Positions 7,261-13,935 are shown, counted from the first letter of the stretch. The stretch is DNA of 64,000 nt from Candidatus Micrarchaeota archaeon (GCA_020854825.1 JAHKLY010000001.1:186844-250843), one strand, 5' to 3'. The notes: generated by a model from the sequence alone, not told the origin. A program made the numbers and translations.

Positions 7261-8448
7261 TTATCCGACTAGATCTAAATCTAGTTCTTCTTCAACTGAT
7301 TTTTTTTCTAAATTTTCCAAAGTGTATTTTGGCATTTTAGTTCCAGCTACAACCACAAGTACTCTTAACGTTGATTTTTTAAGATTATCTTCAATTCTTG
7401 CCCCCCATATTATATGGGATGAAGGACTTATTCTATTTGAAACTTCTTTCATTATTATTTCTGCTTCTTTTAAAGACATGTCTTCCCCACCAACTACATT
7501 TATTAATGCCCTATCTGCTGTTGTTATATCTATATCTAATAGGGGAGAATTTAATGCAGTTTCAATTGCAATTATTGCTCTTTGGTCTGCTTTTGCTTCA
7601 ATAGAAGCTTCTCCTATGCCTATGACTGCGCAGCCTGCGTCTTTTAATATTGTTTTTAAATCTGCAAAATCTAAATTAACCATGCCCGGTTTTGTAATTA
7701 ATTCTGCAATTCCTTTAACTGCTCCTGCAAGTACTTCATCTGATACTTTGAATGCAGTATTTAAAGGCAAGTCTGGAGCTATGGTTAGTAATTTATCATT
7801 AGGTATTACTATTGTTGTATCTGCTTGTTTTTGTAATTTCTCTAATCCTTGTAATGCATTATGCATTCTTGTTCTTCCTTCTGAACTAAAAGGTAAAGTT
7901 ACAACAGCGATTGTTAAAGCACCTATTGCTTTTGCAGCTTGTGCTATAACTGGTAAACTTCCAGTACCTGTTCCTCCCCCTAAACCGCAGGTTACAAATA
8001 CTAAACTAGCATCACCCATTGCTGCTTTTATTTCATCCATAGATTCTTTTGCTGCATTCTCTCCAACTTCTGGATTACTGCCAGCACCTAATCCCTGAGT
8101 TAATTTTTTTCCCATTAAAATTTTTCGTTTAGCATGAGTTTTAACTAAATGTTGAACATCTGTATTTGTTGCAACTAAATTTACTCCTTGGATTCCTATT
8201 TCTGTTACTCTTGTTAAGGTGTTGCAACCACCTCCTCCTGCTCCAACTACATATACTTTTGGTTTACTTTCTTCTATGAATTTTAATAAATCTGCATCAT
8301 CTTCTGATCCTATTTGTACTCCTTGAGGTAACTGGCTTCTTATATTATTTTGGTTATAATTAGAAGGCTGTTCATTAGTAGGTAAAAATTTTGAATTTAT
8401 ATTATGTTTTTTAAGAATTTCTTCATAAGTTTTTGGTTCTTCTGTCAT
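7261..8448 (-). CDS. ftsZ: Cell division GTPase FtsZ
   Basis: VVGAGGGGCNTL, the tubulin signature GLGGGTGTGSLPVIA, and NTDVQHL. ATG 8448 gives MTEEPK...; the track start at 8457 is a GTG. Confidence 0.95.
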   Translation of the reverse strand: MTEEPKTYEEILKKHNINSKFLPTNEQPSNYNQNNIRSQLPQGVQIGSEDDADLLKFIEESKPKVYVVGAGGGGCNTLTRVTEIGIQGVNLVATNTDVQHLVKTHAKRKILMGKKLTQGLGAGSNPEVGENAAKESMDEIKAAMGDASLVFVTCGLGGGTGTGSLPVIAQAAKAIGALTIAVVTLPFSSEGRTRMHNALQGLEKLQKQADTTIVIPNDKLLTIAPDLPLNTAFKVSDEVLAGAVKGIAELITKPGMVNLDFADLKTILKDAGCAVIGIGEASIEAKADQRAIIAIETALNSPLLDIDITTADRALINVVGGEDMSLKEAEIIMKEVSNRISPSSHIIWGARIEDNLKKSTLRVLVVVAGTKMPKYTLENLEKKSVEEELDLDLVG

Positions 8449-8564
8449 TTTTTTCACTTCTCATTTTCAACCCAGTTAAAACTAGGCGCATTAATTGATT
8501 TATATATGGATAGAAAGGTTTTAAATTAGTTTGCTTAGTCTAAATTTTTTAAAATACAAAAATA

Positions 8565-9383
8565 TTAAACAAATAAATTGTACAAAGTGTATACTCCCAA
8601 TATTACTGTTATTATGCCTATTATTTTAACCAGCATTTGTTTATCCATTTTTTTAACAGTAATTGCACAAAATGGAACACTTGCTAATGCACCAATAGTT
8701 AGATACGGAGTTAAAGTCCAATCAATAACAGTTCCTAGAATAAAAAACATTATTATCCCCACTAAACATGTAACTGATTCTGCTAATGAAGTTATCCCAA
8801 TTGCACTTTTACTATCTACTCCTGTTAAAACCTGGCCACTTACCATAACTGGGCCATATCCTCCGCCTGACATTCCCTTATTAAATGCAGCTAAAATTCC
8901 TAACCCAGTAACTCGTTTCCAAGTAAATTTATGTTCTTTTTTCCTTCTCCACAAAATAATTAAGCCCATAGTGAGTACTAAAATACCGATATATAATTTA
9001 AGATAGAATTTAGGCATATTTACAGAAATTAAAACTGCAATTACAGCACCAACAACGCTACATGCAGCTAGTATCATAAATATTTTTGATGCTTGTGATT
9101 TAGGCAAGTATCCTAATTTTCCTAATTTCTTTACCATCTCATGTTCAGAATCATTTTTGAAATCAAAATGAACATTTCCAAATTCATGGTGTACAAATGC
9201 AGCAGCCATACCTGTTATAAATTCAGAAACTAAAATCGCAGGAACTATTTGTAATGGTTCAAAACCCATACCAAGTAGTAATGGAGTTAATGTTGTTCCA
9301 TACCCCATTCCGAATGTTGAGTCTATATATTCACAAATAAATGCAATTGTAAATATTCCAATACCAAACCATAATTCCATCAT
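8565..9383 (-). CDS. TauE/SafE-family anion (sulfite/sulfonate-type) permease
   Basis: Polytopic membrane protein. The N-terminal ICEYIDSTFGMGYGTTLTPLLL and the internal duplication pattern are typical of the TauE/SafE (DUF81) family. Confidence 0.65.
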   Translation of the reverse strand: MMELWFGIGIFTIAFICEYIDSTFGMGYGTTLTPLLLGMGFEPLQIVPAILVSEFITGMAAAFVHHEFGNVHFDFKNDSEHEMVKKLGKLGYLPKSQASKIFMILAACSVVGAVIAVLISVNMPKFYLKLYIGILVLTMGLIILWRRKKEHKFTWKRVTGLGILAAFNKGMSGGGYGPVMVSGQVLTGVDSKSAIGITSLAESVTCLVGIIMFFILGTVIDWTLTPYLTIGALASVPFCAITVKKMDKQMLVKIIGIITVILGVYTLYNLFV

Positions 9384-9473
9384 ATTTAATCTTTCCTATT
9401 TTTATTTAAATATCAGCCAATACACTACCAATAAAATACCAACATATTTAAAACTTGTGTCAATATAGTATAT

Positions 9474-9650
9474 ATGGAAAAATATGATAAGAATTTAATA
9501 GCAATAGAAGAATCAAGCGTTACTATAAAAGGGTACAGACATCGTACAACAATACCAAGTCGAATATTTAATTTCTTAGATTTAGATGATAAAGACAAAT
9601 TAAGATGGATTTTATTAAAAGATGGGACAATAATTATTAAAAAAATTTAA
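9474..9650 (+). CDS. AbrB/MazE/SpoVT-type DNA-binding protein, 58 aa
   Basis: Not in the ORF track. MEKYDKNLIAIEESSVTIKGYRHRTTIPSRIFNFLDLDDKDKLRWILLKDGTIIIKKI fits the swapped-hairpin pattern (...R..IP..i...l.l...d.l.......g.i.i). Confidence 0.6.
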   Translation: MEKYDKNLIAIEESSVTIKGYRHRTTIPSRIFNFLDLDDKDKLRWILLKDGTIIIKKI

Positions 9651-9660
9651 AGTAATCATT

Positions 9661-10371
9661 TTATTTTTCTTTGAATTCTTTAATCAATTTATATATTTCT
9701 ACTGGTTTTATGAATCCTAACTCTTTATTTATATTTAATGACCAAAATCCATGATCAGAATGATCTCCAAATCTACCAATTGCTTCCATTCCATGGTCTG
9801 ATAATATTAGTAGAATATCTGCTTTTTCTTCTGCTATTTTTGCAATTTCTTCCATTTCCTTGTATAGTATTTTCATTTTAGTTTCTAAACCAAAACTTAT
9901 ATGTCCCACCACATCTATTAAACCAAAATATCCCATTACAATTTCATAATCTCCATTTAATGCTTTTAGAAATTGTTCTTTATTTTGTTTATGATGTTCA
10001 AAAAGAGGTTTGTCAAATTCATCAACATCTATTTCTTTATTAAAGAATTTTTTTAATTGTTCTCTTTCTAATTCATGATATTTTATATCTTGTGTAAAAC
10101 CTGGAACATCTATTGCTAAATATTTATTAAACATTGAGAAAAATGTTTCTTCTGTTTTAAGTTTAAAATTCCACATTTCTTTATCTCCAATTTTTAATAT
10201 CTCTTCTTCTTTATTTTTCCCAGATAATATTGAGGACCACAAAACCATTGTTCTGGGTTCTGAATAGTCACTTAAATTTGTTTTTCCATATTTTAATTGT
10301 TTTAATTCTTTCATATCCCACTTTTCTACTAAATCATATTCTAATGCATCTATTGCTAAAATAACAATCAT
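9661..10371 (-). CDS. Alkaline-phosphatase-superfamily metalloenzyme (type I phosphodiesterase / nucleotide pyrophosphatase-like)
   Basis: Metal-ligand and nucleophile motifs appear in the expected order: AIDALEYD, EPRTMVLWSSILSG, IDVVGH, LSDHGM. The start abuts the cysN stop (10372). Confidence 0.6.
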   Translation of the reverse strand: MIVILAIDALEYDLVEKWDMKELKQLKYGKTNLSDYSEPRTMVLWSSILSGKNKEEEILKIGDKEMWNFKLKTEETFFSMFNKYLAIDVPGFTQDIKYHELEREQLKKFFNKEIDVDEFDKPLFEHHKQNKEQFLKALNGDYEIVMGYFGLIDVVGHISFGLETKMKILYKEMEEIAKIAEEKADILLILSDHGMEAIGRFGDHSDHGFWSLNINKELGFIKPVEIYKLIKEFKEK

Positions 10372-11616
10372 TTAATCACCATAAATATTTGTCAATATTC
10401 CACCTGCACAAATATCTTCGTTTTGAATTAAAACGAATCTCCCCAATTCTGGAGTAATATTAAAATCTTCAACTACTATGGGTTTATCTAATTTACATAT
10501 GATTTTAGCAACTTCTGTGTTTTCTATTTGTGTTTCGTCATTTCCAATACTTTCTAAAGATGAAGAATTCATTTTAGTTATAATTTTTTCTAATATGCAT
10601 TCTACTTCTTGTGTTGCTAATTTTAAAAAAATTCTTTCTCCTTTTTTGAAAGGTGTTTTACTCATCCAAAAAATATTGCCTTGTAATGTGTTAATAATTT
10701 TAGGTAAGTTTTCTCCTTTTTTACATATTACAGAACCTCTTTCAGTGAATATTGGTTCTGTTGTTGTTATACCTATACTTATCCCTGCTTCTACTACATC
10801 TCTTTGTCTATTAAATTCTTCAATTGATTTAACAATTGTTTCTGTATATTCAGGTAAAAGTATTATTTCATCATTTTTCTTAATTTTTCCAGATTCAATT
10901 CTACCTGCTAATATTCTTCTTTCATCAAATTTATATACGTCTTGAATTGGTAATCTTAGTGCTTTTTCTTCCATAATATCTGTGTCTTTAAAGGTATCTA
11001 ATGCTTCTAAAACTGTTAACCCTTCATACCAACCAATATTTTTACTTTTATTTGCAATATTATCTCCTTCCATTGCAGATATAGGAATAATAAAAGAAGG
11101 ATAAATATTTAATCTAGATAAAAATGATACTATCTCCTTTTTAATTTCTTCAAATTTTTCTTTTTTATATTCTACTAAATCCATTTTGTTTATTACAACA
11201 ATTACTTGTTTTAATCCTAAAAGTCCTAAAATATATGAATGTCTTTTAGTTTGTTCTTGAACTCCTTCTTTTGCATCTACAATAAGAATTGCTGATTCAG
11301 CTAAACTCGCACCAGTTATCATATTTTTCAAAAATTCTTTATGGCCTGGAGCATCAATAATAACATATTCTTTTTTTTGTGTTTTAAAAAATATTTGTGT
11401 TGTATCTATAGTTATATTTTGTTCTCTCTCTTCCTGTAGATGGTCAAGAAGATAAGCAAATTCTAAGGGCTTCCCCATCATTTCACAAGTTTTTTTAAGT
11501 TCATCCATTTTTCCTTCCGGAAGCGAGTTTGTGTCATAAAGTAATCTTCCGATAAGCGTTGACTTGCCATGATCCACATGGCCGACAATTACAAAATTAA
11601 ATTGTTCTTTACCCAT
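10372..11616 (-). CDS. cysN: Sulfate adenylyltransferase subunit 1-like GTPase (CysN/EF-1alpha family)
   Basis: G1 is [25 protein letters not shown] is CysN-like. G3 is DAPGH and G4 is NKMD. Lies in an operon with cysD. ATG 11616 follows GAGGTGA, 1 nt after the HIT stop. Confidence 0.8.
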
Positions 11617-11617
11617 C

Positions 11618-12064
11618 TCATTCACCTCTAATTTTATTCGCAATGCTTTGCAGTTCTATTCCACTTGGCTTTAATCTTTCAAAATCAGAACTCCTGTCCA
11701 AAACCACTTTTGACTTTTCCCCGTCCCATAACCTATCCCCCTCTTTTCTTGGGATTATGTGGACATGAAAATGGTCAATGCTTTGGGAAGCCCATTTTCC
11801 ACTAGAGTTTGCTATAGTTATATCACAATCCAGTTTTTCTTTTAATTTTTTTGAAATATCCCTTTGTAGCAACCCCAAATCTTTAGCTTCGTCATCATTT
11901 AATTCCATAAATGTGCTCACATGCCTTTTTGAGCATATTATGGTGTGGCCTTCAGTTATTGGATTTGCGTCCAAAAAAACCAAGAAATGTGTTGATTCAG
12001 ATATTATCTCTGGTTTTATGTTTCCGCTTACTATTCTACAAAAAACACAGTCCATGATGCCCAC
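11618..12064 (-). CDS. HIT-family (histidine triad) nucleotide hydrolase/transferase
   Basis: [10 protein letters not shown]-terminal motif and histidine triad DHFHVHIIP. An alternative ATG start lies at 12055. Confidence 0.85.
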
Positions 12065-12862
12065 CTACATATACCCGAGCATCCTAAGCTTCTGCATCAT
12101 GTAAGCCTGCTCCTTGTCCTGCGCTCTGCCTGACCGTTCGGCAGTGTTCGTTGTCTCAAGCTCATGTATTATCTTGTCAATCGTGTCCGCATCTGAATCA
12201 ATTGGGTTGCAGCAGGTATGGCACCCAATTGACCTGTATCTTTTTCCATTTTTTGCAAAATATAAATCCGTCATTGGAATATTTTCTCTTTTTATATATT
12301 TCCAAATATCAATTTCTCTCCAATGTAACATTGGATGTACTCGTAAATGTATTTCTTCCTTTGCCTTAGTTTTATATTGATCCCATAGCTCAGGAGGTTG
12401 ATTTTTATAATCCCATTTAAAATTAGTGTCTCTTGGTGAAAAAACTCTTTCTTTTGCCCTTATTCCATGTTCGTCTCTCCTAATTCCCAGCAAGAGTGCT
12501 TTAAATTTTTTTTCATCTATAAAATTTTTCAATGCAATTGTTTTAAGTTGAGTACAGCATTCTAGTTTACTTATGGGCCCCATTCCTTTATCCAACGCTT
12601 TTTGATTTTTAGCGATTAGCAAGTTTAAATCCCATTCTTTTGCATAATTTTCTCTAAATTCATAAATTTCTTTGAATTTATATCCAGTATCTATATGGAC
12701 TACTGGAAAAGGTACATGCCCAAAAAATGTTTTTCTACATAACCATAATAAGGTAGTAGAATCTTTACCTATTGACCACAGCATAGCTATATTTTTGTAT
12801 TGCTTGTACGCTTCTCTAATAATATAAATACTTCTTGATTCTAATTCATCCAAATGCTCCAT
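12065..12862 (-). CDS. cysD: Sulfate adenylyltransferase subunit 2 (CysD, PAPS-reductase/ATP-PPase fold)
   Basis: LDELESRSIYIIREAYKQYKNIAMLWSIGKDSTTLLWL carries the SxGKDS PP-loop and matches the CysD N-terminus. Lies adjacent to the CysN-like GTPase. Confidence 0.85.
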   Translation of the reverse strand: MEHLDELESRSIYIIREAYKQYKNIAMLWSIGKDSTTLLWLCRKTFFGHVPFPVVHIDTGYKFKEIYEFRENYAKEWDLNLLIAKNQKALDKGMGPISKLECCTQLKTIALKNFIDEKKFKALLLGIRRDEHGIRAKERVFSPRDTNFKWDYKNQPPELWDQYKTKAKEEIHLRVHPMLHWREIDIWKYIKRENIPMTDLYFAKNGKRYRSIGCHTCCNPIDSDADTIDKIIHELETTNTAERSGRAQDKEQAYMMQKLRMLGYM

Positions 12863-12873
12863 TTAATCACCAA

Positions 12874-13110
12874 TTAATCCATATACCCTAGTGCCTTTAA
12901 TCTATTTTTTATTTTTTCTTCATCTTCTTCATTAAAAGCCTCAGGCATTTCTTCTTTCTCATCTTTATTTTTTTCAGCTATTATTTCTCTCAGAATATAA
13001 ATAACGTATGAACTCACAGATGTAAAACCAGTTCCTTTAATTCTTTGCTCTACTTTTTTAAAAAGAGGAGTAGGTATTGATATTGTTGTGTGTTTTTTAG
13101 TTTCTGACAT
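12874..13110 (-). CDS. Ribbon-helix-helix (CopG-family) regulator, first gene of the cys-like operon
   Basis: TTISIPTPLFKKVEQRIKGTGFTSVSSYVIYILREII is an RHH fold pattern. An acidic linker follows, then a C-terminal RLKALGYMD tail. Confidence 0.6.
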   Translation of the reverse strand: MSETKKHTTISIPTPLFKKVEQRIKGTGFTSVSSYVIYILREIIAEKNKDEKEEMPEAFNEEDEEKIKNRLKALGYMD

Positions 13111-13126
13111 CTAATCATCTCCAAAA

Positions 13127-13159
13127 TTATAAGTCGTAATTAAATATAATTACTTATAA
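13127..13159. promoter_or_regulatory. Imperfect 33-bp palindrome upstream of the RHH gene (candidate operator/promoter)
   Basis: TTATAAGT (13127-13134) and ACTTATAA (13152-13159) are perfect inverted repeats. Nested GTAATT/AATTAC pairs lie at 13136-13141 and 13148-13153. The element lies 17-49 bp upstream of the start at 13110. Confidence 0.35.
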
Positions 13160-13236
13160 AAAGTATATACTTAATATTTATAATAGTTTTTATTTTTAAA
13201 TATATACAAAAACCTTAAAAATGTAAAACCACTTAT

Positions 13237-13935
13237 TTGTTTGTGTATTTAGAAAAGCAAGGAGATTTAGCAATTATTAAAGATATAAATCCACTATATT
13301 TTAGATTATATAATCTACTGCCAAATGGTAAATATGTTATTGAAGAAGCAGAAAAATTAAATTTAAGATTAGGAATTAATAATGTATTTTTTGAATATTA
13401 TAAACCATTAAATAAATTTACAATAACTGGAAGAGTTATTTATAGAGGAAAAGTTATAGAACCAGTACCTTTAGTTAAAGATTGGGCATATACATTTTTT
13501 ATATTAAATAATAAAGATATAAAACTGAGAAAATATAATGAAATTATTCCAAGAAGACGATCACAAATACATTTAGCAATAGAAGCAGGACCTAGATTGA
13601 TAGTTGATGAGAATATAACTGAAGGGTTAAATAATACATTCCGTTCTTCAAAAATTTGTATTGGTTGGGATAAAAATCAAAGAATTATGGTAGCAGCAAC
13701 AGAAGGAAAAGTTAGTTTAAATGAATTTGCAGAACAAATCCAAGATCAAGGTTTTATATATGCCTTAAATTTGGATGGTGGTGGATCAACATCTTTATAT
13801 TATAATGAAAATGGTGTAAAGTTAAGAATAATTGGAAAATCTTCTTATGGATATGATAAAATAAAATTTGAACAGAACGAATATGGTAGAAAAGTCCCGT
13901 ATATGGTAGGTATTCCAAAATTTATAGATAAGTAA
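13237..13935 (+). CDS. Phosphodiester glycosidase (NAGPA/DUF2233-like) family protein
   Basis: HLAIEAGPRLIVD...ICIGWDKNQRIMVAATEGKVSLNEFAEQIQDQGFIYALNLDGGGSTSLY matches the NAGPA-domain core (R.a.G......l.........G.t...la.....lG...AlNLDGGGS). Confidence 0.6.
   Translation: MFVYLEKQGDLAIIKDINPLYFRLYNLLPNGKYVIEEAEKLNLRLGINNVFFEYYKPLNKFTITGRVIYRGKVIEPVPLVKDWAYTFFILNNKDIKLRKYNEIIPRRRSQIHLAIEAGPRLIVDENITEGLNNTFRSSKICIGWDKNQRIMVAATEGKVSLNEFAEQIQDQGFIYALNLDGGGSTSLYYNENGVKLRIIGKSSYGYDKIKFEQNEYGRKVPYMVGIPKFIDK

Follow-up and report, generated by a model that had tools for sequence, protein, structure and literature searches.

What does an archaeon do with an ATP sulfurylase when its genome holds no downstream genes for sulfate assimilation? 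The question is raised by a 64,000-nucleotide stretch of Candidatus Micrarchaeota DNA (GCA_020854825.1 JAHKLY010000001.1:186844-250843), called the window below, in which five consecutive minus-strand genes (9661-13110) encode a ribbon-helix-helix (RHH)-like protein, the ATP sulfurylase subunits CysD and CysN with a HIT protein between them, and a 236-residue protein of the alkaline phosphatase fold that we call AP236. We propose, with doubt and confidence evenly matched, that these genes form a self-contained cassette for activating sulfate, whose purpose is to sulfate surface glycans directly from adenylyl sulfate (APS), independently of 3'-phosphoadenylyl sulfate (PAPS), and not to serve assimilation. 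The evidence computed here comprises gene order, protein families, catalytic motifs, conservation, gene absences, the glycan context of the cassette elsewhere and a foreign patch around HIT.

The operon and its conserved core

The open reading frames (ORFs) and their junctions were read directly, and the close packing of five minus-strand genes described in an earlier, sequence-only reading was borne out, the gaps being 0-11 nt. The HIT stop codon (TGA, 11618-11620) is followed 1 nt further on by the CysN ATG (11616), which suggests translational coupling, and the CysN stop adjoins the AP236 start, both as that reading had said. Its claim that the CysD stop and HIT start are adjacent stands for the alternative GTG, which abuts the CysD TAG; the ATG, which lies beyond a 9-nt gap holding GGTGG, agrees better with homologues, whose N termini read MDC[IV]FC. 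Contigs assembled independently from other sludge samples span the internal junctions of the operon, and the gene order, which is repeated in 55 loci of other genomes (L numbers), is far beyond chance.

These 55 loci, retrieved with an AP236 alignment from a set holding a single genome for each species, belong to Methanoperedens, other Methanosarcinales, Methanomassiliicoccales, Thermoplasmata, Hadarchaeota, Methanofastidiosum, Altiarchaeota and Woese-, Pace-, Aenigmat- and Diapherotrites-type archaea, together with a few bins labelled bacterial. Nearly all have the order RHH-CysD-x-CysN-AP236, often with a second RHH gene after it. Slot x, in the 44 loci with both CysD and CysN, was empty in 21 and held DUF2061 in 10, a TauE homologue in 10 and DUF2061 plus HIT in 3; in a fourth HIT locus, L135, the HIT gene lies immediately upstream of CysD. 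The closest full parallel to the window, L007/L111 from a metagenome-assembled genome (MAG) of Aenigmatarchaeota, reads RHH-CysD-DUF2061-HIT-CysN-AP, with identities of 71% for CysD, 46% for HIT, 56% for CysN and 51% for AP236. All tallies include two loci from genomes flagged unpublished, L088 (G042) and L118 (G071), which contribute 3 of the 44 RHH tails discussed below and, for L118, a single row in alignment A5 and another in A6; the conclusions stand without them.

AP236, rather than HIT, is the core of the cassette and the most constant partner of cysDN. It begins at most 60 nt after CysN in 50 of 54 loci, so the phosphodiesterase-like gene is no passenger. HIT is a rare accessory, present in 4 of the 55 other loci plus the window, and the idea that it supplies a core step found no support.

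By family criteria CysD and CysN are classed as a heterodimeric ATP sulfurylase. CysD matched PF01507 with 143.8 bits (cut-off 22.5; E 7e-42) and NF003587 with 352.4 bits (cut-off 195), and fell under the stricter cut-offs of TIGR02039 (266 vs 396.6) and NF009214 (267 vs 413). It aligned with 1ZUN_A (E 1.6e-61), has the SIGKDS PP-loop and is a short archaeal form, about 30-35 residues shorter than bacterial CysD, that retains the C-terminal GY tail in its ending ...KLRMLGYM. CysN passed TIGR02034 (346.7 bits, cut-off 336.1), matched PF00009 with E 2e-51 and lay far under the cut-offs of the EF-1alpha models (314 vs 540 and 346 vs 502); its motifs are G1 GHVDHGKST, G3 DAPGH and G4 NKMD.

Elsewhere CysD shows some variants. 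At L100 (4484-6595) and L132 (4670-6697) the match falls in two in-frame-looking pieces 1.1-1.3 kb apart, and an intein or inserted element is possible. L120 (1828-2361, minus strand) and L138 (2750-3364, minus strand) have, just upstream of the cassette on the opposite strand, a second, distant paralogue of the PAPS-reductase fold, 24-27% identical to CysD, with genes for a sulfatase-family protein and an ABC ATPase next to it. L005, on contig 123 of a relative from the window's order (G004), has a CysD 41% identical to that of the window, preceded by an Inositol_P/CysQ-type phosphatase; the region faces a gene with weak sulfotransferase matches, and hence a PAPS-style arrangement also occurs in this order.

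AP236 scored 19.3 bits against PF01663, under the cut-off of 23, and its L007 homologue scored 26.5 bits. The assignment to the alkaline phosphatase superfamily made in the earlier reading thus falls short by family score and is confirmed by fold and active site. With an AF2 model (predicted local distance difference test, pLDDT, 96.6) as query, Foldseek ranked enzymes of the ENPP family first. An exhaustive structural comparison gave Z 17.9 for both ENPP7 and the Xac nucleotide pyrophosphatase/phosphodiesterase (NPP; rmsd 3.1 Å over 209 residues), followed by alkaline phosphatases (Z 16.5-16.8), phosphoglycerate mutase (16.1) and sulfatases (at most 15.6). The residues invariant in 35 sequences include D8, T41, D153, H157, D192, H193 and H204, which, on comparing the motifs D...T, DxxGH, SDHGM and GDH with those of ENPP7 and phosphoglycerate mutase, we take to be two metal sites and a threonine nucleophile. 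On the model, AP236 is a minimal NPP-like member of the superfamily in which the two-metal site and the threonine nucleophile are predicted to be intact.

AP236 thus has the core fold, two-metal site, threonine nucleophile and motifs in common with the NPPs (Xanthomonas NPP, 2GSN/7MW8; ENPP1-7). It differs from them in having about 60% of their length, in lying under the PF01663 cut-off, in being genetically welded to CysN and in having no signal peptide, since the chain opens directly with the first core strand; it should hence be cytoplasmic. The family is large, with more than 1000 clusters at 90% identity, whose names are only "hypothetical", "alkaline phosphatase family" or "type I phosphodiesterase" and none of them functional; about three quarters of the members of AP236 Atlas clusters carry PF01663. 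The literature that we searched held no paper mentioning this small enzyme and no description of the core cassette.

The RHH-like protein had no Pfam match and only a weak match to a NikR model (E 0.0096), so that support for its earlier identification comes from the modelled fold and not from a family assignment. The AF2 monomer model has an extended N terminus and helices at residues 14-24 and 32-52 (core pLDDT ~90), followed by an acidic linker that is disordered and by a C-terminal helix with the ending ...RLKALGYMD. This tail, (K/R)L(K/R)xLGY[LIM], was found in 44 of 44 homologues from cassette loci, and the only invariant columns, L71, L74, G75 and Y76, all lie in it. CysD shares the ending (KLRALGYM in 26 of 45 sequences), and bacterial CysD likewise ends ...GY. 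A complex prediction that asked whether the LGY tail docks on CysN gave ipSAE 0.00 in both runs, a result that counts neither way. The RHH protein is probably an autoregulator of the cassette. A perfect 8-bp inverted repeat 17-49 nt upstream of its start codon is a weak candidate for the operator, and the DNA there is AT-rich.

The TauE protein matched PF01925 with 108 bits (cut-off 32.6; E 7.5e-31) and is the probable sulfate importer for the cassette. Its homologues occupy the slot between CysD and CysN not only in the 10 loci counted above but also in relative G013, where the order is PDE469-CysD-TauE-CysN and the contig ends inside CysN. In the window the gene lies where the earlier reading had placed it, just downstream of the operon; the separation from AP236 is 277 nt, however, and TauE is probably transcribed on its own, since a T-run lies in this gap together with a 58-aa ORF that is convergent with the operon. 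That small ORF (9474-9650, plus strand) resembles DNA-binding proteins of the AbrB/MazE/PrlF type (PF15937, E 4.8e-5; PF04014, E 0.003; both under cut-off), and a 57-aa minus-strand ORF overlapping it is probably spurious. Rfam gave no match in 8400-13400.

Table 1. Positions of the cassette genes and associated features in the window.
Feature	Position	Strand	Remarks
RHH-like protein, 78 aa	12874-13110	-	ORF; TAA, then 11 nt including GGTGA, then CysD ATG at 12862
CysD, 265 aa	12065-12862	-	PP-loop catalytic subunit of heterodimeric ATP sulfurylase (by family criteria)
HIT, 145 aa	11618-12055	-	ATG 12055; alternative GTG start 12064
CysN, 414 aa	10372-11616	-	GTPase subunit of ATP sulfurylase (by family criteria), without fused APS-kinase domain
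AP236, 236 aa	9661-10371	-	Predicted minimal alkaline-phosphatase-superfamily enzyme; ATG 10371 abuts CysN TAA (10372-10374)
TauE/SafE (TSUP) permease	8565-9383	-	PF01925
Candidate operator, perfect 8-bp inverted repeat	13127-13159		TTATAAGT(17)ACTTATAA
GC3-rich foreign patch	11440-12862		Spans CysD, HIT and first ~60 CysN codons

Genomic setting and origin of the cassette

The window's genome (G000) is 828 kb in 7 contigs, has about 28% GC and is 97.6% complete. The best 50 relatives of its FtsZ are all labelled Micrarchaeota (60-72% identity), and the host is a tiny symbiont-type archaeon of that group. It has AglB. Family searches of the whole genome gave no match to APS kinase (PF01583), sulfite reductase (PF01077), CysQ-type phosphatase (PF00459), Sat (PF01747), Sulfotransfer_1 (PF00685), Sulfotransfer_3 (PF13469) or sulfatase (PF00884). 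Nor was an APS or PAPS reductase found there, the PF01507 matches being CysD and the tRNA thiolase MnmA only. A search confined to family-I inorganic pyrophosphatase (PF00719) gave no match either. Hence the earlier observation of sulfate activation without downstream assimilation genes holds genome-wide (no cysC, cysH, sir, sat, cysQ or PAPS-type sulfotransferase), and their absence from a genome of this completeness excludes classical assimilation. Two candidates were rejected: the "PAPS_reduct" match on contig 2, which is MnmA and not a reductase, and the "Phosphodiest" match on contig 3, which is cofactor-independent phosphoglycerate mutase and not a second phosphodiesterase.

The neighbours of the cassette were surveyed in the other genomes by clustering the flanking ORFs and scanning the representatives against Pfam. 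The cassette usually sits inside glycan-biosynthesis islands, a setting that the earlier reading had not noticed, any more than the wide conservation: among the 38 loci that span 8 kb or more, 28 had a glycan-type neighbour (26 of 36 without L088 and L118). Recurrent neighbours encode NAD-dependent epimerase/dehydratases (16 loci), Wzx-type flippases (15), UDP-glucose/GDP-mannose dehydrogenases (11), sugar nucleotidyltransferases (8), sulfatase-family proteins (7) and large Phosphodiest+SGSH_C proteins (6), and also DegT aminotransferases, glycosyltransferases of families GT1, GT2 and GT4, phosphoglucomutase, hexapeptide acetyltransferases and GFO/IDH/MocA oxidoreductases. In the cassette genomes as wholes, a full-length APS kinase was present in about 10-11 of 50 and Sulfotransfer_3 (PF13469) in 2 of 49, whereas sulfatase-family proteins scored over the cut-off in 33 of 49 and were lacking from at least 12 of 49.

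The cassette was horizontally acquired. CysD occurs in only 3 of the 41 genomes of the window's order, and a sister genome from the same genus (G001, 98% complete), whose match to the window is 84% as far as the end of ftsZ (8547) and 78-79% from the NAGPA gene (13204) on, has no counterpart of 8548-13203, the segment from TauE to RHH. Genes for GT2 and GT4 glycosyltransferases directly follow ftsZ in the sister genome (L223, contig 23, 4746-5999), which points to a variable surface-glycan locus in the genus. The divergent neighbour of the cassette in the window (13237-13935, plus strand) encodes a NAGPA-family phosphodiester glycosidase (PF09992, E 1.5e-18); this gene is kept with the flank in the sister genome and does not travel with the cassette.

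The cassette is also a mosaic in composition. The GC content of third codon positions (GC3) is 0.15 for RHH, 0.14 for AP236 and 0.03-0.13 for CysN after codon ~60, against a background of 0.145 +/- 0.04 for ORFs of at least 250 aa. It rises to 0.30 in CysD (0.43-0.53 at the 3' end), 0.32 in HIT and 0.27-0.37 in the first ~60 CysN codons, and lies at 0.2-0.5 across the patch that these make up. Contigs from other runs on sludge metagenomes cross both patch boundaries with 0 or 1 difference (X5, 11223-11572; X6, 11279-11767; X3, 11485-13200; X5, 12596-12901), and hence the mosaic is real rather than an artefact of chimeric assembly. It is most simply read as the outcome of recombination, in which a tract comprising CysD, HIT and the start of CysN passed from a GC-richer donor into an older RHH-CysD-CysN-AP236 cassette. 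No locus was markedly closer to the window in the patch than elsewhere, the best identities being 75-81% for the C terminus of CysD and 72-75% for the N terminus of CysN. A different contig found in runs X1 (3950 nt there) and X5 has exact words of 23-25 nt in common with the 5' end of cysN (11564-11588) and with cysD (12705-12727), separated by 772 nt rather than the 1116 nt of the window, and the sequences that continue from these words in run X5 are GC-rich. The same community may thus hold a relative of the cassette that is richer in GC and has no HIT, although the matches are very short.

What the cassette may do

From these data we infer that the substrate is sulfate and that APS is the working intermediate, and likewise the chemistry of AP236 and HIT and the acceptor. 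In the proposed scheme TauE would import sulfate, and GTP hydrolysis would drive the formation of APS from ATP and sulfate by CysD-CysN. APS would then be used directly, with no PAPS step, by the translationally coupled AP236 with its two-metal site and Thr41 nucleophile, which would pass the sulfuryl group to a lipid- or nucleotide-linked surface glycan, either itself or via larger sulfatase-like transferases where these are present. The RHH protein would autoregulate the operon. HIT, as a putative AMP-X hydrolase or transferase of the Hint/Fhit type, would probably hydrolyze or phosphorolyze surplus APS or remove abortive adenylyl adducts, and would in this way protect a cell with no other APS sink.

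As a guess we prefer transfer of the sulfuryl group from APS by AP236, since no other partner is invariant and since AP236 is, in the window genome and at least 12 others, the only candidate of the alkaline phosphatase fold. Going by the well-known thermochemistry of phosphosulfate anhydrides, APS is a chemically competent sulfuryl donor. A bolder version, which we regard as doubtful, is that many archaea sulfate surface molecules without PAPS, AP236 serving as sulfuryl transferase or sulfo-relay by way of a covalent sulfo-threonine, and that a dedicated HIT in some DPANN archaea proofreads, either by breaking down excess APS or by freeing the transferase of an adenylyl group after attack on phosphorus. 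We know of no such sulfo-threonine transfer chemistry in the NPP fold.

Several points weigh against direct sulfation from APS. The NPPs, which are the nearest structural relatives of AP236, attack phosphorus and not sulfur; such chemistry on APS would give AMP and sulfate, a futile cycle. The cassette of the window does not lie beside glycosyltransferases, and its genome has no large sulfatase-like transferase. The presence of APS kinase in about a fifth of cassette genomes means that PAPS routes may coexist, and absences in MAGs prove nothing outright. As more than 90% of cassettes are without HIT, that protein is not mechanistically required, and as the sole HIT of its genome it could serve general nucleotide housekeeping.

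The best of the other explanations, which we judge unlikely and yet deserving of serious thought, makes AP236 only a helper hydrolase, which as a pyrophosphatase or nucleotide pyrophosphatase acting locally would draw the unfavourable CysDN reaction forward or recycle AMP and APS while other proteins, sulfatase-like ones of the Agl30/31 type or unknown ones, carry out sulfotransfer. An NPP fold with a threonine nucleophile is typical of hydrolases acting at phosphorus, no family-I pyrophosphatase was found in the window genome, and sulfatase-family genes, which occur in 33 of 49 cassette genomes and in cassette neighbourhoods, could supply the transferases. However, bacterial CysDN needs no dedicated partner of this kind, and AP236 is kept in large genomes, which probably have ordinary pyrophosphatases. 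Moreover, the window genome and at least 12 of the 49 have no sulfatase family, which leaves AP236 as the sole candidate user of APS besides HIT. With real sulfotransferases missing from the window genome, a helper role for AP236 would leave the cassette incomplete or dependent on the host.

HIT matched PF01230 with 61.8 bits (E 1e-16) and has the HxHxH motif (HFHVHII) of the Hint/Fhit type, not the HxHxQ of the GalT/Apa-type phosphorylases that had been considered. The two invariant histidines are H97 and H99, the nucleophile among them. The nearest PDB sequences were 1Y23 and 2EO4, with Fhit (1e-16) ahead of Hint1 (1e-9); bacterial and archaeal Hit proteins and Fhit outranked Hint1, Ap4A phosphorylase and GalT (E 0.004). 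The window protein shares its fold and H97/H99 with Fhit and bacterial Hit proteins and differs from them in its cysDN-operon location, its separate clade and a C-terminal segment of about 35 residues (GDRLWxGxxSxxVLDRSSxFxRL). The clade form of this segment, DRLW...S..(V/I).D..S.F.R(L), is absent from other HITs. A tree of 85 HITs, built by a quick method, grouped the window protein with the 4 from other cassettes and P0002 (SH-aLRT 99, stem 0.77). P0002, the closest homologue (76% identical), lies on a contig of 1370 bp and is placed in the clade by its sequence only.

Only about 6 clusters (50% identity) carried the segment when 1.84 billion representatives were searched with a profile, and in gene context the clade was found only inside such cassettes, namely those of the window and four others, all from DPANN genomes. 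The other four are MAGs of 0.8-1.1 Mb labelled Woesearchaeota or Aenigmatarchaeota, and none of the five genomes has a full-length APS kinase. A metagenome scan with the clade alignment gave generic HITs only, with no CysD, CysN, AP236 or DRLW among the 80 loci listed, and has no bearing on rarity. One clade member, P0134, has GY for GH, HFHFN for HxHxH and a short N terminus and may be an inactive copy; in the HIT of L135 a tyrosine replaces the first histidine of the triad.

It could be argued that HIT has no role in the pathway and is a housekeeping Hint that the recombination patch brought into the variable cysD/cysN slot. The slot also takes the unrelated DUF2061 and TauE, HIT occurs in only 4 of the 55 other loci and upstream of CysD in one of them, and no other HIT is found in the genome. 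We give this explanation rather little weight, as the cassette HITs form one strongly supported and very rare clade with a long stem and a private, invariant C-terminal segment, and the 1-nt junction with CysN suggests translational coupling. HIT is also dispensable in the order, where 16 of 40 relatives have a HIT gene and 24, as well as the 98%-complete sister genome, have none. By analogy we favour a role for HIT as an APS-directed safety valve or in adduct repair. Fhit is described as an adenylylsulfate sulfohydrolase that hydrolyzes APS and transfers the adenylyl group to ammonia, and Hint4 and DcpS are described as hydrolyzing or phosphorolyzing APS (PMC4613722).

The remaining explanations fare much worse. 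Activation of another oxyanion (selenate, molybdate, thiosulfate or a phosphate analogue), or formation of an adenylylated rather than a sulfated product, is improbable. The CysD clade does fall under the equivalog cut-offs of TIGR02039 and NF009214 given above, and NPP and HIT enzymes both handle adenylyl groups; however, CysD is close to 1ZUN_A and sulfated archaeal glycans are well documented, and the recurrence of the TauE/TSUP permease and of sulfatase-family genes in or beside the cassette makes a substrate other than sulfate less likely.

Ordinary assimilatory sulfate reduction, in which unrecognized enzymes or the host cell would carry out the missing steps, is more improbable still. 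The CysDN found in anaerobic methanotrophic archaea (ANME), as well as in Methanoperedens, has been viewed as assimilatory (PMC6286981), some cassette genomes have APS kinase, and L120 and L138 have a paralogue of the CysH fold nearby. Against this, the near-complete genome of the window yielded neither a reductase nor a sulfite reductase nor a kinase, the sludge habitat is probably sulfidic, so that sulfate assimilation should be needless, and the cassette lies in glycan islands rather than beside genes of cysteine synthesis.

The suggestion of the sequence-only reading that an APS-turnover or adenylyl-transfer cycle feeds AMP or ADP to the AMP phosphorylase/ribose-1,5-bisphosphate (R15P) isomerase/RuBisCO route is scarcely tenable: the genes are adjacent in the window and HIT enzymes can turn APS into AMP or ADP, yet none of the other cassette loci has AMP phosphorylase, R15P isomerase or the NAGPA gene, so that the adjacency is not conserved and the link unsupported, the sister genome has these genes in synteny flanking the insertion site with no cassette, and making APS with ATP and GTP merely to give AMP loses energy.

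Known relatives and what the cassette would mean

The cassette resembles several known systems in part. The bacterial CysD-CysN(-CysC) enzymes (E. coli cysDNC; P. syringae 1ZUN; NodP/NodQ) have the same PP-loop CysD, with its GY tail, and the same EF-1alpha-like GTPase CysN, with motifs intact. The window differs from them in its shorter CysD, in having no fused or adjacent APS kinase, in the constant partnership with a minimal NPP-fold enzyme, in the RHH gene with the same tail that precedes the cassette and in a context of glycan rather than cysteine synthesis. The pathway of Methanothermococcus thermolithotrophicus (PMC10322725) likewise starts with sulfate activation and has an unusual phosphoesterase beside the activation genes. 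However, it runs through PAPS to sulfide by a homo-oligomeric Sat-type ATP sulfurylase, APS kinase, PAPS reductase, a DHH-family phosphatase acting on 3'-phosphoadenosine 5'-phosphate (PAP) and Fsr, and none of these assimilation enzymes is present in the window genome. Archaeal cysDN had earlier been interpreted as assimilatory (PMC6286981).

The nearest functional parallel is in archaeal glycan sulfation. Haloferax Agl7 is required for sulfation of dolichol-phosphate-linked hexose (PMC3892788). In Hbt. salinarum, Agl30 (VNG1056C) and Agl31 (VNG1057C), sulfatase-like members of the alkaline phosphatase core superfamily, are N-glycan sulfotransferases; their deletion abolishes sulfation, their expression in Haloferax creates it, and PAPS is never mentioned (PMC11980604). 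Like AP236 they belong to the alkaline phosphatase superfamily, and they lie in an archaeal glycan cluster and were genetically shown to sulfate glycans. Their nearest solved structures, 6HHM and BT1596, also align with the AP236 model (Z 14.4 and 13.6). These structures have about 460 residues, whereas AP236 has 236, a threonine nucleophile and the NPPs as its nearest neighbours, a distinction drawn from descriptions and structural neighbours only. No linkage of Agl30/31 to cysDN has been reported.

It is almost fifty years since sulfated N-glycans became known in archaea, and the two sulfatase-like sulfotransferases were identified only in 2025, in a paper that names neither the sulfate donor nor its supply (PMC11980604). 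The cassette, found in methanogens, methane oxidizers (Methanoperedens) and many DPANN archaea, offers a compact, kinase-free candidate consisting of a sulfate permease, CysDN and a minimal phosphatase-fold enzyme. The HIT-bearing cassette of this 828-kb genome is its most stripped-down form, and as its six genes appear to be the whole system, it is a good starting point for reconstitution. If APS is indeed used directly, it would be a second biological currency of sulfation beside PAPS, and the alkaline phosphatase superfamily would gain a new reaction type. The cysDN counts of metagenomes, now routinely scored as assimilatory sulfate reduction, would then need to be read again.

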